This document shows, one piece after another, positions 3,804 to 29,282 of a stretch of 37,733 nucleotides of DNA (positions within the stretch are counted from its first letter, which is position 1; every line of letters starts with the position of its first letter). Source of the DNA: a virus (Duplodnaviria > Caudoviricetes); the IMG/VR virus record IMGVR_UViG_3300010376_000080, positions 1 to 37,733 of that record; one strand, 5' to 3'. The notes beneath the pieces were generated by a model. That model was not told where the DNA came from, did no database searches, and worked only from the letters and a program-made list of their open reading frames with translations. The position numbers and the translations under genes are program-made.

Positions 3804-4727
3804 ATGGATAACTACTGTATCAGCGTGGGCCACGGCCTCAAGGTCCGTGGCGCCAAGGGATATATCGATGAGGTGGACGAGGCCAAGTGGCTTGTGGGTG
3901 AGCTGGAAAAGGAGATTGAAAAGCGCGGCGCAACCGTGGACACATTCTTCGACACTACATCCACCACCCAAGACCAGAACCTCAAGACCATTGTCAACTG
4001 GCACAACAGCAAGAAGCGGGTGGGTGATATCAGCATCCACTTCAACGCCTATGAAACCACATCCAAGCCCATGGGCACGGAGTGTCTCTACGTAACCCAG
4101 AGTGCAATTGCTCAGGCAGTCGCCTCCGCGATAGCCGGGGTTGGTTTCAAGCCTCGCGGAGCCAAGAAGCGCACTGATCTCTACTTTCTTAACAACACGG
4201 AGGAGCCAGCCATCCTGATTGAGGTGTGCTTTGTCGATAGTAGCGCCGACGCGAATCTATGGAAAAGCAAAAAGAGTGCCGTGGCCCGCGCGCTGGCGGA
4301 CTTGGTCCGACCCCTTGACCCGGAGAAACAGGTCAGCCGTCCGGCTACTATTCCTGACAACCAGAAGGGTATCACTGCCTCAGTCTTTGGAGGAGAGTCT
4401 GATCCTAACTGTAGTGCTTACGATGAAGACAAGATGCTCAATGATACAGACCTTTACATCGCGCTGCCAGATAGGTTCGAAGACAATCGCCCTGAAGTCC
4501 GAGTGCATAACCGGCAGACAGGTAAGAGTGCGGTGGCGGAGATATGGGACGTCGGCCCTTGGAACATTGACGATCCGTATTGGGACAAGGGGACCCGGCC
4601 CCAAGCCGAATCTGGTACTGATATGTCGGGGCGTAAGACTAATGGGGCAGGAATTGATTTGTCTCCAGCCCTCGCAAAGCAGCTCGGTGTTGACGGGATG
4701 GGGGAGGTAGACTGGGAGTTCGTATAA
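3804..4727 (+). CDS. Endolysin: N-terminal Amidase_3 (N-acetylmuramoyl-L-alanine amidase) plus C-terminal RlpA/DPBB-like domain
   Basis: Zn-amidase motifs ISVGHG, E, ISIHFNA, GTE and PAILIEVCFVDS. C-terminal AEIWDVGPW...GIDLSPALAKQLG resembles the RlpA double-psi beta-barrel DRGP/IDLS motifs. AGGAG RBS. Confidence 0.85.
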   Translation: MDNYCISVGHGLKVRGAKGYIDEVDEAKWLVGELEKEIEKRGATVDTFFDTTSTTQDQNLKTIVNWHNSKKRVGDISIHFNAYETTSKPMGTECLYVTQSAIAQAVASAIAGVGFKPRGAKKRTDLYFLNNTEEPAILIEVCFVDSSADANLWKSKKSAVARALADLVRPLDPEKQVSRPATIPDNQKGITASVFGGESDPNCSAYDEDKMLNDTDLYIALPDRFEDNRPEVRVHNRQTGKSAVAEIWDVGPWNIDDPYWDKGTRPQAESGTDMSGRKTNGAGIDLSPALAKQLGVDGMGEVDWEFV

Positions 4728-9815: not shown

Positions 9816-11852
9816 TTATAGATTAATTAATTCGAGGAATCCCCAATTATTTCCCCACTTAATGTCAGTAAGCATTGGAATAGTGATCACGGGCATAGCT
9901 TCTTCCATAATCTTGGCAGCCGCGTAAGCATCGGCCTTATTACTGAAACTGAATCCAAGTTCGTCATGTACTTGCAGGAGCGGAAAATACCCGGCATCGT
10001 CGACTTGGACCATAGCCTCTTTCATTTGCCGAGCGCCGCTACCCTGGATCATTCTGTTAAAAGCCTTATGACAGAAGGCTCGCTTGTATCGTTCACCATA
10101 CCATGGATGATTGGGATTATCTTTACGCCGCTGCATCTCTTCGATAAAGCAGGGCTCTGTAGTGATCTCTGGGTTGTTATCCTTAAACTCAGCTTCCCTA
10201 GAGTAGTCTCGATACACTGGCTCCCATAAATTGAAATGATTACGCGCCCCATCAATCATCCTAATGTGGCCGTTCTTGGCCGCATATCGGTTGTAATGTT
10301 CAGCAGCCTGCTTCACAAATGGCAGGTTTTCATCATAGATATCCATAGTCTTTATTGCTTCAGCTAAATCCATGCCAGTCATAAGGGCGAACTTGTCTCT
10401 ACCTGCCCCATAGCTCTTTGCGAAGTTAGTATCCTTGGCCTTGGGTCGTGGTAGCCGGGTGAGGGCCATCACGTAATTGTGGAAATCAGTATTAGGATCC
10501 TTGCGGTACATATCCGCAGCTTCTTTGGCACCTCGCTTGTGTAACAGCTCGGCTATAAAGACTATGAGCCGATACTCTTGTTGCCGGTAGTCGATGCTAC
10601 ACCAATATTCACCTTCTTCAGGAAGGAAGCACTGCCGAATAAGAGCGGCGTATTGATCATCCCGGCTAGGAGTTTGTTGAAGTGGTGGATCACTGTAGCT
10701 AAACCGATGAGATCTGGCCCCACCCTCTTCGTTCCTAAACTGATTAACTGTTGGATAAACGCGGCCATTGTGAGAATAATTTAAGATGTACTTGCGTAAG
10801 AACTTATCAGCTAACTGTTTCTGGTGGCGGATTGCGTGGACTTCGCGGGGGAACCAGTGCTGGTGATTACTGAGGAACTCTTTTTCGAAACTTGCTTGGC
10901 CTTCGGGGTGCTTCTTGGAGGATAGTGTTTTGGGATAGTAGAGGTTGTACTTTTCAAACTGTCGTTTTAACCATGCGTTCTGACGTACATTCTTTATGGT
11001 TGCCTTTTCACCTATGCTTGAACTGAGCCGGTACAGTCCCTCTTCTACCTTCTTATCTATCTGGTCTGCTAGTTCTTCGGCTCGTAGGGTATCTACTCGT
11101 ATACCCCGTTGTTTCATCTTCAAGGTTATTGGCATCAGCCTACGTTCAACATTGTAGGCATGATCTAGGTTTTCTGCCGTTATCATAGGCCGTAGTTTGC
11201 GGGCGGATAACAGCGTCTGTCCGGCATCTTCTTCAGCATATGGCCCGACGTATTTGCCTTCGTATTGCCAAAGGTTTTCTTTGATCTTGTTCTCTGGTAC
11301 CCTATACTGAGCAGCTATTTCCTTTAAGAGGCGCTCATCTTTACCGGGATATCCTAACCATTGTGCAATGTAATCTAAGCTGAATGAGGGTATATTCTCA
11401 TTTACCATTGAGGCCATTGCTGCGATGTCATCGATCTGTTCCGGCGGCTCAATCCCAAACGTAGCCTGAATCCAACCCCAATCAAACTGAAAAGAGTGGA
11501 AAACAAATCGAGTACGTCTTTGTTTTGCAAGTGCTTGAAGCCACCGTCTAACATTATCATAATCGAAGCATTGTGTATTTGGATGTCGTAATGGGACGTA
11601 GATTTTACTAAGGTCACACTCGCCTCCCCAGGCGAGGGATAATCCACATATAAATCCAGTCTTGTCGTTTGTCCTTTCGTATGCGTAATAACCCGGTCCT
11701 TTATCTTTTGCGAGTGACGGGTCTTTTTCTTCTGTGTCAATTGCGATCTCCTCTACATTCGACAAGTCCGGCAATTCTGCCGGACATACCCATGGGCTCT
11801 CAGGTGCGAATAGTAGCCCTTGTGCGAACGAGGGCTGCTTGCGCGTGGCCAT
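9816..11852 (-). CDS. Family A DNA polymerase with 3'-5' exonuclease domain
   Basis: Exo I IAIDTE, Exo III YAEEDA, RFSYSDPPLQQTP, motif A SIDYRQQEYRL, motif B RPKAKDTNFAKSYG, motif C LQVHDEL. Confidence 0.95.
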   Translation of the reverse strand: MATRKQPSFAQGLLFAPESPWVCPAELPDLSNVEEIAIDTEEKDPSLAKDKGPGYYAYERTNDKTGFICGLSLAWGGECDLSKIYVPLRHPNTQCFDYDNVRRWLQALAKQRRTRFVFHSFQFDWGWIQATFGIEPPEQIDDIAAMASMVNENIPSFSLDYIAQWLGYPGKDERLLKEIAAQYRVPENKIKENLWQYEGKYVGPYAEEDAGQTLLSARKLRPMITAENLDHAYNVERRLMPITLKMKQRGIRVDTLRAEELADQIDKKVEEGLYRLSSSIGEKATIKNVRQNAWLKRQFEKYNLYYPKTLSSKKHPEGQASFEKEFLSNHQHWFPREVHAIRHQKQLADKFLRKYILNYSHNGRVYPTVNQFRNEEGGARSHRFSYSDPPLQQTPSRDDQYAALIRQCFLPEEGEYWCSIDYRQQEYRLIVFIAELLHKRGAKEAADMYRKDPNTDFHNYVMALTRLPRPKAKDTNFAKSYGAGRDKFALMTGMDLAEAIKTMDIYDENLPFVKQAAEHYNRYAAKNGHIRMIDGARNHFNLWEPVYRDYSREAEFKDNNPEITTEPCFIEEMQRRKDNPNHPWYGERYKRAFCHKAFNRMIQGSGARQMKEAMVQVDDAGYFPLLQVHDELGFSFSNKADAYAAAKIMEEAMPVITIPMLTDIKWGNNWGFLELINL

Positions 11853-12070: not shown

Positions 12071-12405
12071 CCGGCTGATTCCTCTGCGGCCGTAATAAGT
12101 TCATCCAAGTTACCGGGCCAACCCTCAGTTTTCTCAAGCTCCCCTTCTAGTTCCTCACAGCTACCTACTACCTCTTCCATCTTTTCGATTGTTTCAGATA
12201 GCTCGGTACCTTTCTCACCCTCCTGTGCCTTCTCCCCCAACTCGTCAAACTTCTCTTGTATCTCATCCCGAAGCCCTTCGAAGGTAGTCTTGGCATCGGC
12301 AATAGCCGAAGTGACAAGCTGCCAGTCCACCTTCTCAAGTACGGCCTTGGCATTCATAAGGTCCTTAACCGCAGCTTCAATCTTCTTCCTTTGTTCCTTG
12401 TTCAT
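12067..12405 (-). CDS. Acidic helical / coiled-coil protein, ~112 aa
   Basis: GGAGG RBS before MNKEQRKK, very Glu-rich. Confidence 0.7.
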   Translation of the reverse strand: MNKEQRKKIEAAVKDLMNAKAVLEKVDWQLVTSAIADAKTTFEGLRDEIQEKFDELGEKAQEGEKGTELSETIEKMEEVVGSCEELEGELEKTEGWPGNLDELITAAEESAG

Positions 12406-12862
12406 GGTGTCCTCCATTCTCCGGTGTGCCGGGATAGTTGGGCTCAACTTTCTTGGTCTCATTAATTATGAAGTCAGCAGCCTTGGCAACTTCGATTAGC
12501 GCGCACAAGATACCGCGCGCTAATTCCAATTCAAGTTTGCTTCTATAGGAACAAAGCAAATGAATGTATTCCTCCTCTTCTCTACAGAGCTTATTGGCTA
12601 GAGCAAACCGTTGAACCTCCTTGGTAATTTCTGCCTGCTTCATAACCCGTGGTGACCATGTACAGGTCGCCACTTCCAATAACTTATCATGATAATGGAG
12701 GGCCTTTTGCAGGTCCTCCAAACCATTCTTCTTACGCCACCGAGCCACATATTTCGTGGCAGTGCCTTCCATATAAGGGAGCTGGCATACGATGGCTAAG
12801 TCCCAATGCTCATACTCCGTCTTGTAGTGGCTCCCGCCAACTTGCGTCTCGTTTGCCCCCAT
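12377..12862 (-). CDS. DUF3310 (SaV / T7 gp1.7-like) putative nucleotide kinase
   Basis: ANETQVGGSHYK...ATKYVARWRKKNGLEDLQKALHY signature. Confidence 0.85.
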   Translation of the reverse strand: MGANETQVGGSHYKTEYEHWDLAIVCQLPYMEGTATKYVARWRKKNGLEDLQKALHYHDKLLEVATCTWSPRVMKQAEITKEVQRFALANKLCREEEEYIHLLCSYRSKLELELARGILCALIEVAKAADFIINETKKVEPNYPGTPENGGHHEQGTKEED

Positions 12863-13463
12863 ATCTCACCTCCCAGTATAATGGGTTCCACCATTCATCT
12901 TTAGAATGGTCACCTCTCAGGCTAAGGTACTGTCGGTAAAACAACTTCAGCCTAATAGTAACATAATCCGCCAGCCTCGGGCAAGGGGGCGGGTTCCAGT
13001 TATACACAGCCTTTAGGCACCGATCAGCTACGATCATGCCATGGTTATTACCGAGTAAGATTTGATCCATACCGAACTCGGCAAACTCAACGTGTTCGAT
13101 TTGCTTTAGTAGGATTCTATCTTCTGGTGATACTGCCACTGGAAAGAAAGCGTTCCAGTGTTCCAACTGTGTGGCATAGGACCAGTGCTCGAGCCTATCC
13201 AACGACTCTTTCACACTAGGGTTGTCCCGTTTCATTGGATAGGGAGGATCTCCTGTGTAATGTTCCCCTATGTCATGGAACATTATCTCCCGCACCAAAT
13301 GGATATCGGGCTCTTCATCCACCATTAGGTAGATGCGAAGGAAGTTCCAGCAGTGGTCAGCTATAGTCTGACCACCGATGATCGGCCAAGTATGATAGCG
13401 TTTGATCTGCCCAGCTAACCGGGTATCAAGTCTCACCGGGTCCGCGGGATCTTCGCTGTGCAT
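12810..13463 (-). CDS. HD-domain deoxynucleotide hydrolase (YfbR/DatZ-like)
   Basis: IKRYHT..QTIADH..FHDIGEHYTGDPPYPMK motifs. Confidence 0.85.
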   Translation of the reverse strand: MHSEDPADPVRLDTRLAGQIKRYHTWPIIGGQTIADHCWNFLRIYLMVDEEPDIHLVREIMFHDIGEHYTGDPPYPMKRDNPSVKESLDRLEHWSYATQLEHWNAFFPVAVSPEDRILLKQIEHVEFAEFGMDQILLGNNHGMIVADRCLKAVYNWNPPPCPRLADYVTIRLKLFYRQYLSLRGDHSKDEWWNPLYWEVRYGGKRDASWREPLQDGV

Positions 13464-14463
13464 GGTGTCTCTCCAACCATTCCATTGCTGCTCTGCGCCA
13501 ATCGTGACTGATTATCGAAGAGGCCCACTGTATCGCCTCTGTGGTATTTCCTGTCTTATATAGTTGATGTGCAACGGCCATAGGGATAACCACCCCGGCC
13601 AAGAACGGGTTCTCTACGTGTGCCCACCGAGCTCCCATGTCGTTATGTATATCATCAATAGCTTGCATGGCGCAATGGAGGTTTGAATCAAAGCCATCAT
13701 CAGCATACAATGGATAGGGCTGTTCGTATGTATCCCGGGTCCACAGGTAGGGAACAATATCAGCCGGGGTTATAGGCTGACAACGTTCGTTTAGTTGTTC
13801 CATATGAAAACGATATAGGTGCAGATTAGTAGTGACCTGCCAATATCCACCAACTTCAACCTTTAGCCTCCCGGCTAAGTACTCTTGAAGAAATGAAAAG
13901 TGAACTGCGTTGGCCCCACAAGCTCCCCATATTAAATCATTAGACCTATTGAATACGGTCATATCTAATCGGTTATCGTGTATACGAAACGTAATTACGA
14001 GGTTGCAGGGCTTGGTATCCATTTCACTAATTAGGTCGGGCAGCCCCGCTCCCCACATCTGCAAGACCACTTGCCGGGAGTATGGGTTACGTTCAAGTTG
14101 GCGAACCACTTCCTCAATCTGGTCGAATGGAAAGCCGTGGCGCCAGCGGTATCCATAAGCATCCATGATGACACCGCCCACCCCATACTTTTCACTGAAC
14201 CCTTTGATGTAGTGATCCAGAAACGCCCCGTCATTTCTACCGGCTAACATCCACATGGCTTCCATAATATGAAAGAAGGGGTTAGCATCCCTAATTGGGT
14301 TGACCAGCACTCGCTCTGTGGGGTTGGTGTAATGAATGGTGACAGGGCCTGGAGCTACGAGTGCATGACCTAGCCGGGTATCTTCTGGGTAGCCTTCGTC
14401 CATGAGATACTGAACAGCCATCGGTAATGCTTCACGGACATTCTGTGCTACAATCACGTACAT
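13426..14463 (-). CDS. Thymidylate synthase-fold enzyme, probably dUMP hydroxymethylase
   Basis: NPFF..EAMWML.G, AYGYRW, SRQVV, catalytic KPCN, RSNDLIWG.CGAN and NLHLY. Asn at the specificity position implies dUMP; T4-type dCMP hydroxymethylases have Asp there. Confidence 0.85.
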   Translation of the reverse strand: MYVIVAQNVREALPMAVQYLMDEGYPEDTRLGHALVAPGPVTIHYTNPTERVLVNPIRDANPFFHIMEAMWMLAGRNDGAFLDHYIKGFSEKYGVGGVIMDAYGYRWRHGFPFDQIEEVVRQLERNPYSRQVVLQMWGAGLPDLISEMDTKPCNLVITFRIHDNRLDMTVFNRSNDLIWGACGANAVHFSFLQEYLAGRLKVEVGGYWQVTTNLHLYRFHMEQLNERCQPITPADIVPYLWTRDTYEQPYPLYADDGFDSNLHCAMQAIDDIHNDMGARWAHVENPFLAGVVIPMAVAHQLYKTGNTTEAIQWASSIISHDWRRAAMEWLERHHAQRRSRGPGET

Positions 14464-14464
14464 C

Positions 14465-15148
14465 TTACTTCTCCTTTATGATGTGTGCCCCGCTGAGTGT
14501 AATATCTCGTGGTGTACCCCACTCCATCGGCGTATAGGTGGTGAGTACCGCGGTGGTGTTCACCTTAATGTACTCGAATACTTGACTAACGTAGGGTTCC
14601 TTATGGAATGAAGTGACCTCGTTGAGCCCGTGCATAAGATCTGGCATTGCTTCTTCGGAGAAGTAATAGGCCCCGCGCACCGCGTATTTGGATATACGCT
14701 TCTTCTCCTCGACACGGCTGAACTTGCCCAGCTTATCCACATAGGAGAATGCCGGGTTGGCACTCTCGCTCACCAGTACGCCACAAGCTTGGATACTCAA
14801 TCGAACTAAATCATTGGTAAAGTTTAGGACATCGGCATCCATAATCATAGCTGGCCCCGTGCCCCCGAGTACATTCAATATCTGCAAAGCTGTATCAGCC
14901 GGGCCTCTTGTCTTAGCAATCTCATGGTAGTAAACGGAACGACCTGTAAGGATCTTTGTGCCAATTCGCATATAGCCTGTAGGGATGGCGACAGCCACAC
15001 TGAACCCACATGGTACGGTACAGATCACATGGTCCAGCATGGTTTGGATATTGCCGCGGTAATCAATCTTGAGGAATGGTTTGGGAGTATTGTATCCAGC
15101 TTCAACAAACCGATGACTCAGGCCCGCGGCAAGAATTATAGCGCGCAT
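14465..15148 (-). CDS. Sugar-phosphate nucleotidyltransferase (NTP_transferase, GT-A-like)
   Basis: IILAAGLSHRF..AGY..PKPFL, TRGPADT, IMDAD, VEEKKRIS..A..GAYYF and WGTP motifs. Confidence 0.85.
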   Translation of the reverse strand: MRAIILAAGLSHRFVEAGYNTPKPFLKIDYRGNIQTMLDHVICTVPCGFSVAVAIPTGYMRIGTKILTGRSVYYHEIAKTRGPADTALQILNVLGGTGPAMIMDADVLNFTNDLVRLSIQACGVLVSESANPAFSYVDKLGKFSRVEEKKRISKYAVRGAYYFSEEAMPDLMHGLNEVTSFHKEPYVSQVFEYIKVNTTAVLTTYTPMEWGTPRDITLSGAHIIKEK

Positions 15149-15927
15149 TGCATCAACCTTCCTGCAACTTCTTCTGCCCACATACCAGCATGGCATGTAT
15201 TATTGCGGAGCGCAATACGTCGTAGAGCGACGATACACCAGAACACAGCCCTCCGTGCTGTCTCATATTCAAGCATGAAGCTAGGCATTGAGTATTCGAT
15301 CTCTGGCATACCACGCAGGACAACTTCCCACCCAAGTAGGGATTGGAGTACCTTGGCATGGTCTATAGCACGAATGGAGGGACGCACCAATCGGTGAGGT
15401 GGTATGGGATCTGCTATTTTCACATGCCCATCTTTAGTGACCAAGGTATTATCAATGGTTGGATCACCATGGATAATGCAGGGAGTATCCATGACCCACA
15501 CTGGAACATTTATCCCAATGGTATCGTAGAGTGCCGCGGCCCAAGAAGTATCACCTAACTCCTTGGTGAAGGGGCTATCTTCCAGTGGCCGGTTCCACAC
15601 ATAGCAGTCGAGGAGTTGCTCGATCATGAGTAGGGTGCCTTTGGAGGTTGCAATTGGCTGCAGATACTCCATCGTAAAACTAACATCGTTGGTACTCAAT
15701 ATCCGTGGGCACACCTTCTCTCCAAGGAAAAGCATGAACGCAGCCTGCTCCCCGGCGAACTCAGGTGGCTGCGTCGTCTTGTGAACTGCCAGGGTCAACT
15801 GAGAATGTCCATAGCCCCGCATCTCAAAGTTATATCCATCCAACACAACCGGGAGGAAGTCGGGCGTATACCACTGAGCAATGCGGGATAGCTCTCTCAC
15901 AGTATTAAGGAGATCTGGCAGCTTCAT
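15136..15927 (-). CDS. APH / choline-kinase-fold small-molecule kinase
   Basis: Brenner motif IIHGDPTIDNTL, VKIADP and DHAKVLQS. Confidence 0.8.
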   Translation of the reverse strand: MKLPDLLNTVRELSRIAQWYTPDFLPVVLDGYNFEMRGYGHSQLTLAVHKTTQPPEFAGEQAAFMLFLGEKVCPRILSTNDVSFTMEYLQPIATSKGTLLMIEQLLDCYVWNRPLEDSPFTKELGDTSWAAALYDTIGINVPVWVMDTPCIIHGDPTIDNTLVTKDGHVKIADPIPPHRLVRPSIRAIDHAKVLQSLLGWEVVLRGMPEIEYSMPSFMLEYETARRAVFWCIVALRRIALRNNTCHAGMWAEEVAGRLMQCAL

Positions 15928-15933
15928 GGTGGT

Positions 15934-16086
15934 TTACCTTAGACTGAGGAAGTAGGTGACTTGTAGTAGGACTAGGGCAACGATTGATGCCCCCATCGGC
16001 CATATGAAGGAGGCGTGGTTACGACCAAAGGCTACCCCTATGATAAAACTAAAGAACACCTGGAGAAGTGCGAACCAGATGTTCAT
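15934..16086 (-). CDS. Small two-TM membrane protein, 50 aa
   Basis: GAGG RBS, ATGA coupling, two hydrophobic segments. Confidence 0.6.
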   Translation of the reverse strand: MNIWFALLQVFFSFIIGVAFGRNHASFIWPMGASIVALVLLQVTYFLSLR

Positions 16087-16874
16087 GGCTTCCTCGACCT
16101 GACACCATCCTCTAGTGCCTTTTGCCACTGCACGATCACTTCGACACGAGGCACAGAAGCTTTATAATCTTTCTTGACCGTGGACACATATCCAGGATGT
16201 AGTTCTGAGAGTTTAATAGCGTCATCATTCGAGCGTTCCATTGTTCGCTCGTCAGTCGCTCCGCCCGGAGCATCGAATTTACGTTGGTCATTAACTGTCG
16301 TATGCCAGATGGCGTTGGGGTATCCCTTCCGCAAAAGTTGCAGTGTGACATCCATATCTTCCCTAGTTTCAATGCGCCCGAGCTCAACTTCTTGGGCTAC
16401 TACCGGGAGGTAGTATCCCAAGGAGTAGCACATCTTGCCGGGTGATTTCCAACCCACCTCTTCCATCGTGTTGTTGCCTTGGCGAGGACCGAACCCCACG
16501 TGTGGAACCTCCCGGCTAAGCATTAGTTCCAGCCGCTCGAACTCAGGAATAAGTTCCTTGCCTCTGATTTCCTTAAGGTGCCAGTCGGTATCACTCATAC
16601 GGGTGGCAAAGCGTAGGTCATCGTCGAGCATAATGATCTTTTCGTAACCCATTGTAGCCCACTCTTCAATGATCCATTTACGCTTTTGGGCAATAGTCCA
16701 GCTTGGATCAGGTTGTTCCATAACTGTAACGTCTTCACTCAACCCAGATAACGTGAAGACTTCACTCTTTGGGCATACGATAGTTGTTCGTTTCTTTAGT
16801 TCACTTGGGAGTTGGCTGAGTGTCAGTTGTTGGTTGGTTCGACCCCTGGTTGGAATTATGATGTGCATGTACAT
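16083..16874 (-). CDS. GT-A glycosyltransferase, TAGT / JGT / GREB1-like DNA base glycosyltransferase
   Basis: IIIPTRGR, IAQKRKWI, MLDDDL (DxD), EDMDVTLQLLRKGY, PGGA and LHPGYV motifs. Confidence 0.8.
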   Translation of the reverse strand: MYMHIIIPTRGRTNQQLTLSQLPSELKKRTTIVCPKSEVFTLSGLSEDVTVMEQPDPSWTIAQKRKWIIEEWATMGYEKIIMLDDDLRFATRMSDTDWHLKEIRGKELIPEFERLELMLSREVPHVGFGPRQGNNTMEEVGWKSPGKMCYSLGYYLPVVAQEVELGRIETREDMDVTLQLLRKGYPNAIWHTTVNDQRKFDAPGGATDERTMERSNDDAIKLSELHPGYVSTVKKDYKASVPRVEVIVQWQKALEDGVRSRKP

Positions 16875-17646
16875 ATTCTTCTCCCTGTCTCACGGCTGCC
16901 TTCCAATCAAATCGAACCTTGTATCCTTGCGGGTGGCGTGTGCCATCTTTCCTCGCAGGATACTCGGTATATGTGACGATACCCGGCCAGAGCTGTGCCA
17001 TGCGCTCAATCTCTGACATCATGATTTCTGTGGTACGCCAGTCGCTGCAACCTCCCTTACTGTACGGCCGATCGACTTTACTATATTCAGTAATTATGGC
17101 GGTTTTGTGACCGCGAGTAATAAGTTGGAGCATGATGTCATGCTCCTCGGCAATCAGCCCACGGAACTCGGGCCAAGGCTTGGGGAACCGATCTCGGTTG
17201 AAACATAACGTCTGGTTGAAACGGTGGCATTCGATATGTCCACGCGGGAGGCTCTGGCTCATAAACTTATCCGCTAAGCCTACCATAGTATATTTGCCGA
17301 GTAAAGTGCAGATATTGTTAATCATCTCGACAGTTTGTTCAGGCTTAGTGGGTAAGAAGCGACTGCCATCCTCGATGCGCCGGTAGAACTTCAAGTCGTC
17401 GTCTAGCATGAGTATCTTACCAGACTCTTTCAAGCGTAACATGAACTGGCGTTTAGCGGCAATGCCGAATCCATCAAATGGTAAGATCTTGACATCCATA
17501 GGGGTTACTTGGCGATACTGAATGTACTGATCGAAGGGCACGACCAATGTGATGTACGGCCACAGCTCCTCAGAAAGACCCTTGATAGTCTTCTGGTTTA
17601 GTGGGCGAGAACGTGAAGGTATGCAAATTTGCATATCATGATCCAT
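16801..17646 (-). CDS. Second GT-A glycosyltransferase, paralogous to 16083-16874
   Basis: ICIPSRSR, IAAKRQF, MLDDDL, EEHDIMLQLITRGH, KGGCS and WPGIV motifs. Confidence 0.8.
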   Translation of the reverse strand: MDHDMQICIPSRSRPLNQKTIKGLSEELWPYITLVVPFDQYIQYRQVTPMDVKILPFDGFGIAAKRQFMLRLKESGKILMLDDDLKFYRRIEDGSRFLPTKPEQTVEMINNICTLLGKYTMVGLADKFMSQSLPRGHIECHRFNQTLCFNRDRFPKPWPEFRGLIAEEHDIMLQLITRGHKTAIITEYSKVDRPYSKGGCSDWRTTEIMMSEIERMAQLWPGIVTYTEYPARKDGTRHPQGYKVRFDWKAAVRQGEEYVHAHHNSNQGSNQPTTDTQPTPK

Positions 17647-18538
17647 TGTATCGCCTCTTTAGCCTCCCGCCCAGGCGGGCCTTTTCATACTTACTGAACT
17701 CGCAGCAATGGTTCTGTGTGTCTTGGGCATGGAATGGACCCATGCCATTCTGGGCTAAGATAGCATTCTCCTTAGCCCGCAATTGCAGCAATTGATCTAT
17801 CCATTCTCCTGGTAGCCACTTCTCACTCATCATACGGCCTAAAACAGCATTCAAACCACGTTGTGACCCCGGACCAGGGGAAGCCCAGCTCCACCAATCC
17901 TCCACTTGCATCATGAATGGCAAGTATTTCAGGTCCGCAACTAATTGTGCCGTCATAAAAGACCCTAGTCCAGAAGCACTTTCCTGCAACCATACATACA
18001 TTGATTGTAGAAGAGGTGGATTCTTTAGCCATTCTTCCCACTTAGCCTCCCATGGTTTCTGGCACCAATGGTGGAAGTACCGAGCAACCCCGATGCCTTT
18101 TGGAAACCCCGACTCACCGTTGATGATATAGGCCCCGGTCACGTGAGGGAAGGGTAGCTTGTTAATGAATTCGAATAGGATGCTGGGCTTCTGGCACCCG
18201 CTGTCAATGTACTCTTCGAAGACAGAACGGTTACCGATGTTGGGCTCGTTAAACAGACGAGCACAAGTTTCTATCCGGTTAAACCACCGATATAGGACTG
18301 TAGCCGGGAGTACCAGGGGGTTCTCCTGTCCGTAGTAGTCCCGGACGGTCTTCTGGTAGTGGATGGAGGTCTTATCGATTTCGCGGTACACATTGGTGAA
18401 GCTGAACTCTTGAAGTATAGGGTCATCAGTCCATGGCTTTGGCTCATGTCTCGACTTCTGGTGGTAGATGTTGTTGCGCTCCCAGAGGAAGGCACAGTAC
18501 CGCTCAAAGGGGTCCTTTATTTCGTAGATTGATACCAT
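17636..18538 (-). CDS. 5-hmdU DNA kinase helical-domain protein (aGPT-Pplase1 family)
   Basis: ER..IY.K....PKPWTDDPIL..F.FTNVYRE.D, YRWFN, TGAY, GLGSFM..Q..ADL, PGPGS.RGL and CEFSKY. No P-loop is visible in this ORF. Confidence 0.85.
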   Translation of the reverse strand: MVSIYEIKDPFERYCAFLWERNNIYHQKSRHEPKPWTDDPILQEFSFTNVYREIDKTSIHYQKTVRDYYGQENPLVLPATVLYRWFNRIETCARLFNEPNIGNRSVFEEYIDSGCQKPSILFEFINKLPFPHVTGAYIINGESGFPKGIGVARYFHHWCQKPWEAKWEEWLKNPPLLQSMYVWLQESASGLGSFMTAQLVADLKYLPFMMQVEDWWSWASPGPGSQRGLNAVLGRMMSEKWLPGEWIDQLLQLRAKENAILAQNGMGPFHAQDTQNHCCEFSKYEKARLGGRLKRRYNGS

Positions 18539-18897
18539 GACCTATACTCTCGCAAGAGGGCGGGGTTGAGCAGTGGGTTGGCCCAGTCACCATCGAACCT
18601 TATGCAGCGATCGTCGATGGTAAGGAAGGCGCGCGGCTTGGTGATTGGGAAGTCGAGTTGCCGCACAAACTCTTCTGACGTATGCTTTAGAATGTATTCG
18701 AACATGGCCCTTCGGCCATGTGGATCTTCTGACCGGCTAGAGTAGATGGCTATGTCGAAGTGTAGCATTGCATCAGCCATCCACTCAAATACCCCCGGCA
18801 CGGGTGGATCGGGTATAACTTCAATACCCTTCCATCCGCTGGAATAGCTGTTGATTACGCCGTCGAAGTCCATAAGAAGTATCGGACGGAACATCAT
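18517..18897 (-). CDS. Capless HAD-superfamily phosphatase
   Basis: DFDGV motif I, YSSR motif II, KP...IDDR motifs III/IV. Confidence 0.85.
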   Translation of the reverse strand: MMFRPILLMDFDGVINSYSSGWKGIEVIPDPPVPGVFEWMADAMLHFDIAIYSSRSEDPHGRRAMFEYILKHTSEEFVRQLDFPITKPRAFLTIDDRCIRFDGDWANPLLNPALLREYRSWYQSTK

Positions 18898-19544
18898 GCA
18901 GCCTCCGGTAAAAGTTTCATGGCTTCAGCCACCCGCTCATCGATCATACGCATGGCTGTTGGGTCGTAGTTGTCGGCTTCTCGTAGTAGTGGAAGTCCCG
19001 TGACTATGGAGGCTAGAACCTCATCACGGGTAGCTGGGCGACCTTGGGCAAAGAACTCCACGCCCTCTGGCTTACCCAACTCAAATAGGATGCCACCATT
19101 GACCTTGACTGGTTTGAAGTCGTAGGTAGTCCACAAGACACAGACACCAGGGTTGCGCATAATAGGGATACCAGCAATCTTCTTGTTTTCTGGTAGCTCC
19201 CTGACCTCGTTGCGGCGCATCTTGGGTTGGGTTAGGAATGGGCAGGTCATCGCGGCATAGGTCGCACAAGCCCGGTGGCTCGGTGGTTCGGCATTAACCC
19301 GGTTGATCATACACATAGGTCCGATCACAAAGGTCTTGTATTTACCGAGGATCTTGCCGCAAAGCCAGCATCGGTTGTTTTGAAATGCTGACCTAAACTT
19401 TTCTTCGTTGAACACTCGGAAGTCGGGCGTGTTTTCGTCTACCCAATGCACGAACCAGGGCACTGGATAGCCCTCTTCAGAGATACGTAGGTGCTTCATC
19501 TGGTTGGGGATGCCGATTTCAGCTATGCGTTTGTTGAGGTTCAT
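18894..19544 (-). CDS. Conserved-looking Cys/His (zinc-binding) hypothetical protein, 216 aa
   Basis: GYPVPWFV, RCWLCG, GPMC and EPPSHRACA.YA..TCPFL motifs. Coupled at both ends. Confidence 0.7.
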   Translation of the reverse strand: MNLNKRIAEIGIPNQMKHLRISEEGYPVPWFVHWVDENTPDFRVFNEEKFRSAFQNNRCWLCGKILGKYKTFVIGPMCMINRVNAEPPSHRACATYAAMTCPFLTQPKMRRNEVRELPENKKIAGIPIMRNPGVCVLWTTYDFKPVKVNGGILFELGKPEGVEFFAQGRPATRDEVLASIVTGLPLLREADNYDPTAMRMIDERVAEAMKLLPEAA

Positions 19545-21261: not shown

Positions 21262-22065
21262 TCAGAAGGGTATGTCCCCGTCCTCACCCCTTTGGCCTTC
21301 AGCTATTGGTGCTTCAGCCCGCTTTTCACCCTTTATGACTTGATCGTAAAACTTACGACAAGCCGGATATTCAGTCTTAAAATCCACCCATCCGAGGTCT
21401 TCAAACTTAATGCCGAACCAATCGCCAACGGCATTGCTTTGAGGCCATGTACTCAGTTTGTACTTACGACTATAGGCTGGCATCACATCATTGGTTTTGG
21501 GATTGTGGAATTGAGTGAACATCGTATTCCATTGCTTGGCGAATGTGTGCTTGGTTCCAGCACAGGGCAGAACGAAAGGTTGCCCGTTCACCATGAGATA
21601 AAACTCACGAGTATCTTGGATGTGGTTGCCGGTGCTCTTCCGCACCCGAATAGTTTTCTCCTTGCCATCATCATCGTGGATGATCTTATCCTCGGTGTCT
21701 GCTGGCTCGGCATCGTGCCGGGCAACGAACCCCTGCCTCTTCGGCCGCCACTCAATCCAAGTGCGTACCATCATACACGGTATGGCAGTGAATCCTTCTT
21801 CTCCCTTCTTGACAGGATCCAATGCACCGCGAAACCAAAAGTCACCCGGCTCAGCATCCTTTACATACGCCTCACCGCGTTTGTTCACAGCCGGGGAGTT
21901 CGTCTGCAACACATAAATCAGAGGCAGAAGCTGATCTTCTGCCTTGAAACTGACACCCTTCCCTGCGTCTTGCGCGGTGATATCAATCGCATCTTCTGGG
22001 AGGGCCATATCCCTCACATTAACGGTTGCCACTTCTTGGGCCATAGATCCTAGCTCCTGGTTCAT
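21262..22065 (-). CDS. Single-stranded DNA-binding protein (phage type)
   Basis: Acidic C-terminal tail EDGDIPF, LQTNSP..WIEW.P...GFV..H and N..GDWFG motifs, located in the replication arm. Confidence 0.75.
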   Translation of the reverse strand: MNQELGSMAQEVATVNVRDMALPEDAIDITAQDAGKGVSFKAEDQLLPLIYVLQTNSPAVNKRGEAYVKDAEPGDFWFRGALDPVKKGEEGFTAIPCMMVRTWIEWRPKRQGFVARHDAEPADTEDKIIHDDDGKEKTIRVRKSTGNHIQDTREFYLMVNGQPFVLPCAGTKHTFAKQWNTMFTQFHNPKTNDVMPAYSRKYKLSTWPQSNAVGDWFGIKFEDLGWVDFKTEYPACRKFYDQVIKGEKRAEAPIAEGQRGEDGDIPF

Positions 22066-23984: not shown

Positions 23985-24386
23985 CTATCGCTGCTGCCCC
24001 ATGCCACCTTTCGGGGTTCGGCTGTAGGCACGTTTGATTGCAGCATACTGACGCTCGGTCAGATAGGCATTTGCCAGATAAGACTCAGAAATACTCACAA
24101 CAAATTGATAGAAACTATGTGCCGGATTTACGTTTTCGAGCAGATAAGCTATCATCTCCGGAACAAAATGCTCCCGGCCAAACCGGGGACCATGGTACTC
24201 CCAGTGACTATCCTCGGCTCTGCCATCATTATGGGGATTATACGGGTTCAGTCTTTCAATAAATTCCCGCCAATTTAGATTAGATTTCGCTAGTTCAGCA
24301 TTTGCCATACGAATCGCATTGAGGCATTCCCCATCATGCTCACTCGTCGTCATAAGCAGGAGTTTTATTAGCTTTTCCCTGTCCAT
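23985..24386 (-). CDS. Hypothetical protein, N-terminus DUF2786-like
   Basis: KLIKLL.M.TS.HDGE.LNA.RMAN..L pattern, GGGGA RBS before MDREK. Confidence 0.65.
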   Translation of the reverse strand: MDREKLIKLLLMTTSEHDGECLNAIRMANAELAKSNLNWREFIERLNPYNPHNDGRAEDSHWEYHGPRFGREHFVPEMIAYLLENVNPAHSFYQFVVSISESYLANAYLTERQYAAIKRAYSRTPKGGMGQQR

Positions 24387-24975
24387 CTTTATCCCCCAGG
24401 ATCTTATTGTCAAGGATTTTGACCTCGTCAAACACGTATACCCCGAGAAGTTCTCGGGGTATTATGTGATTTGCCTTGATTTCACGTTTTACGAACGCAC
24501 GGAGCGTTTGATGGTGAATAGACTCGTTGGTATAATATTGTATACCAGCCGCTTTAAGAATTTGCATCACCCGGAGTCGTTCCTCGTGTTCCTGCATACC
24601 GAATACGATATTGATTATAGACTTGATTAGATCTCCATGTCCCTGGCTCTCAAACCATTCAAACGCTTCTTCCCTTTTATCATCTGGAATTTTAGCTGTA
24701 TATACAGTTGATCTCTCCACTCGAAATGCCGGGTGATTGCCTATAGGGTCGACGTCTACCCCGGAGACTTTCGCATCATTGACCATCTGTAAGAGTTCAT
24801 CCCGCTCAATCTTGGTGATGCGGGACTTGACTTGATTAGCCCGCTGAATCAAGTCAGCAAGCTTAAGATATTGCTCGCGGAGCTCGACCGCTTTCCTGCG
24901 AACGAGTTTGATGTCCATGGTGGGTTGTGGAGTATCAGCCGCCACTGCGTTGAAGAGGTCTTCTTCGTTGCTCAT
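24340..24975 (-). CDS. Phage replication-module hypothetical protein, ~211 aa
   Basis: AFEWF...GHGDLIK and IHHQTLRAFVKRE motifs, typical of the gene that usually precedes SSB in PolA phages. Confidence 0.7.
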   Translation of the reverse strand: MSNEEDLFNAVAADTPQPTMDIKLVRRKAVELREQYLKLADLIQRANQVKSRITKIERDELLQMVNDAKVSGVDVDPIGNHPAFRVERSTVYTAKIPDDKREEAFEWFESQGHGDLIKSIINIVFGMQEHEERLRVMQILKAAGIQYYTNESIHHQTLRAFVKREIKANHIIPRELLGVYVFDEVKILDNKILGDKDGQGKANKTPAYDDE

Positions 24976-25100
24976 TGTAACAATCCTATGATGAAGAAGG
25001 TTGTGAAGCAGACGACACATATTCCGGCATGAAAATAGTCTTTTTTATAGACTAGAGTACCAACGGTGATTAGAATGATACTGAGTGCTGCAACATTCAT
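24972..25100 (-). CDS. Small two-TM membrane protein, 42 aa
   Basis: GGAGGAG RBS, ATGA coupling. Confidence 0.6.
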   Translation of the reverse strand: MNVAALSIILITVGTLVYKKDYFHAGICVVCFTTFFIIGLLQ

Positions 25101-28811: not shown

Positions 28812-29282
28812 ATGAAGAGGTTGCTTTTAGCGAGCGCAGCGGTCGTATTCGCGACCGGGGCGCAAGCGAACGGTTGGATGCGTAACTTCTGCACTGACCC
28901 AACTGGTCTGAACATTCGGAGCGGCACCAATATGGACTTCCCCATTCACGGTGCCATCCCTCCGGGCGAATTTGTAATGACCGGGCAGTGCAAAGATATG
29001 ACCCCATGGTGGAATGGGCGGCAGTTTGTCGTCGGTGCCCCATGGTGCCACGTGAACTACCATGGCATTGTCGGGTGGGCTTCCACCTCGTGCCTTGAGC
29101 CAGCAGCAGCGGAAATCGCCGCTCCTGTGGTGCCTGCTCCCGGGTATGCGGGGCCAGTTGTCACTCAGCAACAGGCCAATCCTACCATTATCGTGCAGCC
29201 GCAAATCACGGTTCCGGCACCGGTGATCATTGCACCTACCGACAGCTCCAAAACTGTCACGCAAGGTGCAGAAAAGAACTAG
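28812..29282 (+). CDS. Secreted SH3b-domain protein
   Basis: Signal peptide ending AQA. LNIRSG....PI.GAIPPG...C...WCHVNY.G..GW.S..L pattern. Confidence 0.8.
   Translation: MKRLLLASAAVVFATGAQANGWMRNFCTDPTGLNIRSGTNMDFPIHGAIPPGEFVMTGQCKDMTPWWNGRQFVVGAPWCHVNYHGIVGWASTSCLEPAAAEIAAPVVPAPGYAGPVVTQQQANPTIIVQPQITVPAPVIIAPTDSSKTVTQGAEKN

Follow-up and report, generated by a model that had tools for sequence, protein, structure and literature searches.

Thymidine hypermodifications of phage DNA that start from 5-hydroxymethyldeoxyuridine (hmdU) pass, where characterised, through phosphorylated 5-hydroxymethyluracil (hmU) and an amino-acid or amine transferase, and the phage DNA glycosylation systems so far characterised that use a furanose made by the phage act on cytosine. 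We analysed a 37,733-nucleotide Caudoviricetes contig (IMG/VR record IMGVR_UViG_3300010376_000080, positions 1 to 37,733; hereafter the window) in which ten minus-strand genes upstream of a DNA polymerase join relatives of the hmdU-synthesis genes to two putative DNA glycosyltransferases (GTs) and a predicted sugar-activation trio. Our preferred reading, held at a probability of roughly 0.55, is that the cluster leaves glycosylated hmU in the phage DNA, the sugar being retained and supplied from a donor that the phage builds itself. The window is one whole contig and about 49% of its phage genome, and negative results given for it cover that part.

The base-synthesis genes resemble those of M6, PaMx11 and ViI, which have an orthologous thymidylate synthase (TS) homologue, aGPT-Pplase1, an HD protein and DUF3310 in the same order before the family A DNA polymerase PolA; where these phages carry a P-loop 5-hmdU DNA kinase (5-HMUDK) and an amino-acid:DNA transferase (AADT), the window has GTs and the sugar trio (available text of PMC8989533 and PMC5889632). 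The GTs recall base J synthesis (JBP and JGT) and the phage TET/TAGT systems, in which a GT-A enzyme puts a sugar on a hydroxymethyl-pyrimidine in DNA. There the hydroxyl comes from a post-replicative dioxygenase and the sugar from the host, whereas the window's route would be pre-replicative with a phage-made donor (Pyle preprint, in the part available). The same preprint describes TAGT-type GT-A enzymes as moving sugars onto DNA and resembling the base J glucosyltransferase, and its metagenome survey counted GT-A enzymes near ThyS, secondary GTs and APH genes.

Two described pathways resemble the sugar trio. In the T4-like phages RB69, DLP3, LC53 and HY126, arabinose-5-phosphate from a phage-encoded isomerase is converted by a kinase, a HAD protein and a nucleotidyltransferase (AfhE/AfhF) to UDP-arabinofuranose, which serves successive DNA GTs. 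That system modifies cytosine; its hydroxylase is D169N/N177D, its transferases are GT-B-like, its AfhE is fused and it has an arabinose-5-phosphate isomerase (PMC13326640, available text). The window shares none of these features. The EcbF/BcbF-type capsule trio, as in BcbEFG of Pasteurella multocida, clusters the same three activities and includes the nearest non-viral relatives of the window's nucleotidyltransferase, but its acceptor is a polysaccharide, its kinase is much longer and weakly similar, and a family match between the HAD proteins was not shown (PMC13552107, available text).

A cultured analogue is the Ralstonia jumbo phage phiRSL1, whose ORF228-238 (locus L055, 5235-14889) likewise encode an M6-type TS, aGPT-Pplase1, TAGT GTs, an APH kinase, a nucleotidyltransferase and a HAD protein. 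Unlike the window, RSL1 has three GTs, a sulfotransferase, an APS kinase, a long capsule-type kinase and a TS that keeps an aspartate discussed below. Its ORF234 scores 187 bits on TAGT. The RSL1 cluster predicts a sulfated sugar on hmU; no chemical description of RSL1 DNA was found in the literature searched. A TS, aGPT-Pplase1 and a TAGT-like GT also lie near PolA, with no AADT, in phiJL001 (gp19-26), LuckyBarnes (gp38-41) and HTVC023P-type pelagiphages, and the pelagiphage arrangement of TS, aGPT-Pplase1, nucleotidase and GT beside PolA has already been reported (PMC9599517, available text). The HD gene is common to phiJL001, the pelagiphages and the window. These phages differ from the window in having no donor trio and a single GT (two in LuckyBarnes), and their systems are predictions only. 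In the literature searched, which was largely without subscription journals, no publication was found that characterises glycosylated hmU made by a TS/TAGT cluster of a phage.

Gene layout and conservation of the cluster

The ten open reading frames (ORFs) occupy 18897 down to 12377. The junctions between them span -74 to +6 bp, and two small ORFs and then PolA follow (Table 1). An earlier account of this DNA made from the letters alone, here called the sequence-only reading, had described this order and a mostly overlapping packing upstream of the polymerase, and both are as it stated. Its family assignments also held: HMUDK_hel, the two TAGT GTs, TS and DUF3310 by Pfam, the HAD protein by PHROGs and motifs, and the APH kinase by motifs and Foldseek. 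PHROGs matches back the HAD protein, both GTs (phrog_842), the nucleotidyltransferase and the TS.

Independent contigs show the gene order again, at 40-78% identity, so the cluster is not a chance assembly; the order is the same in loci L005, L009, L011, L017, L026/L027 and L136, and truncated in others. A quick IQ-TREE run on 100 distinct TS rows placed the window in a 27-row clade (SH-aLRT 100). Its closest relative is locus L136, represented by records G006 and G007, with a TS 76-77% identical (L136/G006). Three further relatives served as references: G001 (77,961 bp, complete with a terminal repeat) and G002 (97% complete) carry the full cluster, and G005 (complete) has a short one without the donor trio. 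A small membrane protein proposed by the sequence-only reading corresponds to a real 64-aa ORF, but one found only in the window among the 7 genomes or contigs searched; its place is empty in G001 and G002, and it is probably not part of the pathway.

Table 1. Cluster genes and the adjoining polymerase, in order of transcription (positions in the window).
Feature	Coordinates	Strand	Evidence
Small HAD phosphatase, 126 aa	18517..18897	-	PHROG 23773 E 3e-18, 1238 E 3e-8; DxDG/SSR/KP/IDD motifs
aGPT-Pplase1 / HMUDK_hel helix-hairpin-helix protein, 300 aa	17636..18538	-	PF18723 E 9e-37
GT1, TAGT-family GT-A	16801..17646	-	PF20691 E 1.9e-12, 48 bits; phrog_842; variant RSR/DDD/EEHD
GT2, TAGT-family GT-A	16083..16874	-	PF20691 E 3e-18, 66.9 bits; phrog_842; RGR/DDD/REDM
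64-aa hydrophobic ORF, GT2/kinase junction	15934..16128	-	tblastn, none in 6 related contigs
APH-fold small-molecule kinase, 263 aa	15136..15927	-	catalytic motifs; AF2 pLDDT 92; Foldseek
Sugar-1-phosphate nucleotidyltransferase, 227 aa	14465..15148	-	AF2 pLDDT 94; Foldseek best 4evw, E 7.9e-15
M6/PaMx11-type TS homologue, predicted dUMP hydroxymethylase	13426..14463	-	Pfam thymidylate synthase E 2.7e-24
HD / YfbR-like nucleotidase	12810..13463	-	phrog_6047 E 9e-24; Pfam YfbR/HD match under cut-off
DUF3310 protein, conserved companion of M6-type TS	12377..12862	-	PF11753 E 1.3e-6
Family A DNA polymerase (PolA)	9816..11852	-	PF00476 E 6e-38; position same in relatives

Proposed pathway

In the pathway we favour, the TS homologue would convert dUMP to 5-hydroxymethyl-dUMP (hmdUMP), as suggested by its M6/PaMx11 orthology and Asn177 and made less secure by a missing aspartate; the HD and DUF3310 proteins would lower competing dTTP, and PolA would incorporate hmdUTP. 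The APH kinase would phosphorylate the anomeric hydroxyl of a host furanose phosphate, the HAD protein would take off the distal phosphate, and the nucleotidyltransferase would make a nucleoside-diphosphate (NDP)-furanose, donor steps modelled on the AfhE/AfhF route and BcbEFG-type trios. GT2 would then move the furanose onto the hmU hydroxyl on DNA, and GT1 would add a second sugar, a division suggested by gene trees and neighbouring genes. There would be no phospho-hmU step, and only part of the thymine positions would carry sugar-linked hmU. The sugar step would not need aGPT-Pplase1, which by our guess may turn unmodified hmU back to T or help to flip bases. The modification would presumably protect the DNA from host nucleases.

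Two TAGT-family glycosyltransferases

GT1 and GT2 both match PF20691 above its cut-off and carry the R..DDD..ED motif, GT1 in a variant form. In a FastTree tree of 77 GTs, GT2 falls in a 20-row clade with RSL1 ORF237, L095 and L146. Members of this lineage sit immediately before the kinase in four lineages (the window clade, RSL1 ORF237, L095 and L146), and at L146 the GT2-lineage gene is the only GT found. GT1 belongs to an 11-row clade with the altered EEHD motif, in which a second GT adjoins in every row and the trio is present in 10 rows, L070 being the exception. From this tree and the neighbouring genes, GT2 is likely the base-proximal enzyme, predicted to use the trio's donor, and GT1 likely adds a second sugar. 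A scheme in which GT1 alone uses the trio's donor was dropped, as the tree points to GT2.

A predicted sugar-donor module, its nucleotidyltransferase related to capsule loci

The HAD protein is predicted to be the sugar-bisphosphate phosphatase of the trio. The kinase, predicted to phosphorylate the anomeric position of a furanose phosphate, has 322 relatives at E 1e-10 in a 50% cluster library, and its K50, HGD153-155, N160 and D173 are invariant across 33 aligned sequences. It has no Pfam match and its profile found no match among PDB sequences; by Foldseek, its AlphaFold2 (AF2) model matches APH(2''), FN3K and CcrZ (E ~1.5e-3, probability ~1), and Atlas neighbours agree. The NTP_transf_3 Pfam match of the nucleotidyltransferase lies under the cut-off. 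Searches with the nucleotidyltransferase and with the L095 kinase found no match in cultured phages, and a search of bacterial genomes with the nucleotidyltransferase alignment found none. An identical nucleotidyltransferase is encoded on a contig of 61.5 kb.

The three genes go together. Kinase and nucleotidyltransferase are present in 14 of the 27 TS-clade rows and both missing from the other 13; the HAD gene is found in 6/6 trio-bearing rows intact at that point and in 0/13 trio-less rows, some of which end early on the upstream side. G005, complete and trio-less, has none of the three anywhere in its genome. Since they are present or absent together, we treat them as one module.

The nucleotidyltransferase closely resembles the enzymes encoded beside TIGR01689 EcbF/BcbF genes at capsule and O-antigen loci of bacteria (E 1e-17 to 7e-9, hhalign 98-99%), a far stronger match than that to the LC53 AfhE N-domain (E 5e-4). 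The kinase has weak matches (E ~1e-5) to RSL1 ORF236 and to the AfhE-like kinase domain of LC53, the latter with hhalign 83%; against bacterial capsule-trio kinases it gives E 0.006-0.07, and hhalign 84% or 29% depending on the template set. The HAD protein gives E 0.11 against its AfhE/AfhF-route counterpart, and the trio genes are split in the window rather than fused. KfoE of E. coli K4 is presumably the kinase-type member of such a trio. Deletion of kfoE leads to loss of fructose (PMC8858990, available text), and BcbE and BcbG are necessary for the fructose side chain in P. multocida (PMC13552107).

No arabinose-5-phosphate isomerase (SIS, PF13580) was found in any of 5 records, nor did the LC53 isomerase query give a match; the donor substrate would thus come straight from host metabolism. 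The arabinosyl-hydroxycytosine pathway was rejected on the missing isomerase gene and the TS residues. At L136 10707-11453 (G006, G007), between kinase and nucleotidyltransferase, lies a true transaldolase (TIGR02134, 306 bits, above cut-off); an identity as an FSA-type aldolase was rejected, as the gene carries the transaldolase Glu/Phe signature. Identity between G006 and the window is 40% for the kinase and 47% for the nucleotidyltransferase but 66-78% in the flanks, which indicates that the donor segment has been exchanged between relatives. Transaldolase yields fructose-6-phosphate and sedoheptulose-7-phosphate, ketoses that need no isomerase, and Araf5P, Fruf6P and sedoheptulofuranose-7P have a common ring stereochemistry. 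Together with the capsule-trio kinship, these points suggest an NDP-furanose donor for which fructose is the leading single candidate, though by no means certain. We would put fructose-6-phosphate at somewhat under one chance in three and host arabinose-5-phosphate slightly lower, and give sedoheptulose-7-phosphate and all other sugars, taken together, a little less than even odds.

A more specific scheme would have the DNA coated with ketoses. Host fructose-6-phosphate, or sedoheptulose-7-phosphate in the transaldolase-bearing relative, would be turned by the capsule-derived trio into an NDP-ketofuranose, placed on hmU and extended by a second GT; the donor segment would be swapped to change the sugar, and aGPT-Pplase1 would convert leftover hmU to T after replication without a 5-hmdU kinase. 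We regard this scheme as doubtful.

Predicted base-synthesis genes

The window TS is 45% identical to that of Ab18, 44% to PaMx11 gp51 and 40% to M6 gp58. It retains Cys153, Asp176 and Asn185 and the PCN and RSND motifs, and is without the Leu143 of canonical ThyA. Its catalytic Cys is Cys153, and the dUMP-specificity residue Asn177 (Asn185 in the window), which the sequence-only reading had picked out, is present in all 27 clade rows. With Cys, Asp169 and Asn177 all kept, the enzyme is of the dUMP type and not a D169N hydroxylase; RB69-type 5-hydroxy-dCMP synthases combine D169N with N177D, where the window has RSND and Asn. The HD gene is orthologous to M6 gp59 and PaMx11 gp52, and its product likely trims the dTMP/dTTP pool. 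The DUF3310 gene is orthologous to M6 gp61 and PaMx11 gp53, and PolA likely incorporates the modified nucleotide.

The identity of the TS product is the weakest step. An Asp three residues before the catalytic Cys, at the Leu143 position, is found in 0/27 clade members against 66/72 rows outside; the window has Thr there and Lys at Cys-2, the latter shared by 25/27 members. As L143D is a mark of hydroxymethylases (PMC13326640), hmdUMP is not assured, though it remains the likeliest predicted product. The clade TS might instead make dTMP or another 5-substituted dUMP, in which case acceptor base and product would differ from glycosyl-hmU; a dCMP deaminase gene was looked for without success in the window, G001, G002 and G005, which fits such an enzyme. 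Yet the window TS nests among M6/PaMx11-type enzymes with their PCN, RSND and Asn177 and no canonical Leu143, it keeps Asp169, and every intact clade locus has a GT upstream, which calls for a hydroxyl acceptor. We consider a different TS product unlikely.

aGPT-Pplase1 and the missing kinase and amino-acid transferase

The window's aGPT-Pplase1 matches PF18723 over its full helical length (127 bits against a cut-off of 25; Atlas structure TM 0.85) and is the orthologue of M6 gp55, PaMx11 gp50 and phiJL001 gp19. The sequence-only reading had called it a 5-hmdU kinase-family protein, an identity ruled out by the lack of a Walker A motif in 17636-18538 and of a PF18748 match. Proven 5-HMUDKs are P-loop kinases (M6 gp54, PaMx11 gp49), and glycine transfer in lysates did not require M6 gp55 (PMC8989533). 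SP10 gp186 fuses P-loop kinase and HMUDK_hel domains, and the Pfam name HMUDK_hel likely stems from such fusions.

A P-loop 5-HMUDK (PF18748) gave no match in the window, G001, G002, G005, G006 or G007, and UvrD is the sole credible Walker A protein in the window, G001, G002 and G005. The lack of a 5-HMUDK gene in the window and its complete relatives makes a phospho-hmU step unlikely. In the same four records, no AADT (aGPT-Pplase2, PF18724) was found, including with a profile of our own (0/4 and 0/4 records, of which three are 97% complete or more, the window's other half lying outside the search), and no Ploopntkinase3, pyridoxal phosphate (PLP), M6-type radical SAM or SIS isomerase gene. 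The positive control for these searches, aGPT-Pplase1, was recovered in 7/7 records. The sequence-only reading was thus right that the window holds no AADT or PLP gene and, for the M6 type, no radical SAM gene; the search for aGPT-Pplase2, which it had proposed for the rest of this genome, was negative in the complete or near-complete relatives.

Among 99 TS rows, 82 have aGPT-Pplase1 in the fetched flank; the remaining 17 include many truncated loci. The 82 loci divide into 52 with a GT only, 18 with a P-loop kinase only, 2 with both and 10 with neither, in a sample that over-represents GTs because 41 loci were fetched with a GT query. The aGPT-Pplase1 Cys279 is kept in 15/15 aligned clade-1 proteins; in a forced MAFFT alignment only, it pairs in 18/18 rows with Cys247 of the AADT PaMx11 gp46, which contacts the target nucleoside. 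Profile-profile alignment with AADT fell short of significance (0.7%), aGPT-Pplase1 has Gln in place of the AADT Glu243, and it had no match among PDB sequences. In Microbacterium phage BouleyBill (L058 1357-2830), aGPT-Pplase1 stands beside a Ploopntkinase3 kinase and a different TS, with no AADT in the fetched stretch.

The route from hmdU to T on phage DNA after replication has been stated to be unknown (PMC5889632), and aGPT-Pplase1 is a candidate for this conversion. This opens a reading in which the sugar is a transient activator: the aGPT-Pplase1 Cys would attack C6 of GT-modified hmU, the sugar would leave, and the methylene would either undergo reduction, giving T, or be trapped by a nucleophile, leaving virion DNA poor in sugar. 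The conserved Cys and the many loci pairing aGPT-Pplase1 with a GT would suit this, but the insignificant match to AADT and the Glu243 replacement speak against it, and a retained glycan is the better fit to a dedicated pathway for a rare sugar, to the presence of two GTs and to the radical SAM and FkbM methyltransferase genes that tailor the product in sister loci by prediction. We judge a transient sugar quite unlikely.

Weighing the pathway

Besides the aspartate missing from the TS clade, several points weigh against a retained, phage-made sugar on hmU. The pathway rests on genes, its enzyme activities being predicted, and half of the window's genome is absent from the data. A five-row GT2 subclade has lost the trio, as has GT1 once (L070), so the assignment of GTs to donor is not clean. 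The kinship of the kinase with either known trio is weak (E 1e-5 to 2e-2, hhalign 29-84%). The HAD protein was not shown to be BcbF-like: the window's protein and two orthologues had no TIGR01689/NCBIfam match, and hhalign gave 18%. The flanking capsule genes are taken as BcbE and BcbG by gene order, not sequence. Finally, palindrome avoidance gives no sign that T-containing sites are protected. CAGCTG and GCATGC each occur 0 times against 9 expected; values for the window's 6-mer palindromes with 0, 2, 4 and 6 A/T were 0.59, 0.52, 0.83 and 0.99 in an uncontrolled comparison, GC-rich ones being more avoided than AT-rich. This pattern would result from T modification but equally from a host whose restriction sites are GC-rich, and is uninformative.

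Another possibility is that GTs and trio glycosylate a non-DNA acceptor, such as a host surface glycan or a virion protein, and merely adjoin the hmU genes, as the capsule and O-antigen origin of the trio's bacterial relatives might suggest. Both GTs, however, belong to the TAGT / T-even DNA-GT family, they lie between aGPT-Pplase1 and TS in the replication module of every intact relative, and the same trio adjoins C5-DNA methyltransferases in other phages; we hold this to be very unlikely. Least probable of all is the version given in the sequence-only reading, in which, much as in SP-15 or Carin-5, hmU would be phosphorylated on the DNA and bear a sugar or polyol through a phosphodiester link: phosphate-bridged sugar-thymidines do exist (PMC12686479, available text) and 2/82 outside loci (L095, L148) join a P-loop kinase, GTs and the trio, but no 5-HMUDK was found in the window, G001, G002 or G005, the HMUDK_hel gene is not the kinase, and GT-A TAGT enzymes form glycosides.

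What stands of that account is a thymidine-modification cluster with glycosylation, its own activated-sugar route and no AADT; the kinase and phosphodiester part falls away. It overlooked the kinship of the donor trio with BcbEFG and AfhE/F, the cultured analogue RSL1 and the clade's loss of the hydroxymethylase Asp.

Related loci and neighbouring genes

True 5-HMUDK genes (PF18748) accompany two GTs, a kinase and a nucleotidyltransferase in the rare loci L095 (2983-10107), L147 and L148, the best candidates for a phosphate-linked sugar. Other TS and aGPT-Pplase1 loci carry radical SAM-SPASM genes (L070, L082, L099, L100, L104, L106, L115, L122, L150), FkbM methyltransferases (L060, L074, L076, L089, L117, L127) or UDP-glucose dehydrogenase with an epimerase (L162), and a wide family of modifications is predicted from these tailoring genes. 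The trio also occurs next to genes for a C5-cytosine DNA methyltransferase, a dUTPase-like product and a conserved protein of 350-490 aa that matches nothing in Pfam or NCBIfam (L020 8413-11935, L031 415-6074, L021 9074-16589, L038 8535-13482, L037, L039), possibly another DNA-glycosylation system.

Between UvrD and the HAD gene, the window encodes a 216-aa Cys-rich ORF of no known family (18894-19544), 74% identical in G006/G007, located elsewhere in G005 and absent from G001 and G002. At 21262-22065, 24340-25020, 3804-4727 and 28812-29282 lie genes resembling Pam3 gp34 and gp33, one for an Amidase_3 endolysin and one with an SH3 domain; the window's relatives also have NusG-like and AEP primase genes. 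CAGCTG, GCATGC, GCCGGC, GGGCCC and CCCGGG are strongly avoided in the window, G001, G002 and G005, which suggests a host with many such restriction sites.

Implications

On this reading, the cluster combines hmU made before replication with GTs of the base J kind and a module for the sugar donor that can be swapped. Its predicted product is a glycosyl-thymidine, possibly with fructose, of which no description was found in the literature searched. The 13 of 27 relatives without the trio are natural dropouts, and RSL1, phiJL001 and LuckyBarnes are cultured proxies. GTs specific for hmU could serve as DNA-labelling tools. Because aGPT-Pplase1 is retained without the kinase, the system also bears on how hmdU becomes T on phage DNA.

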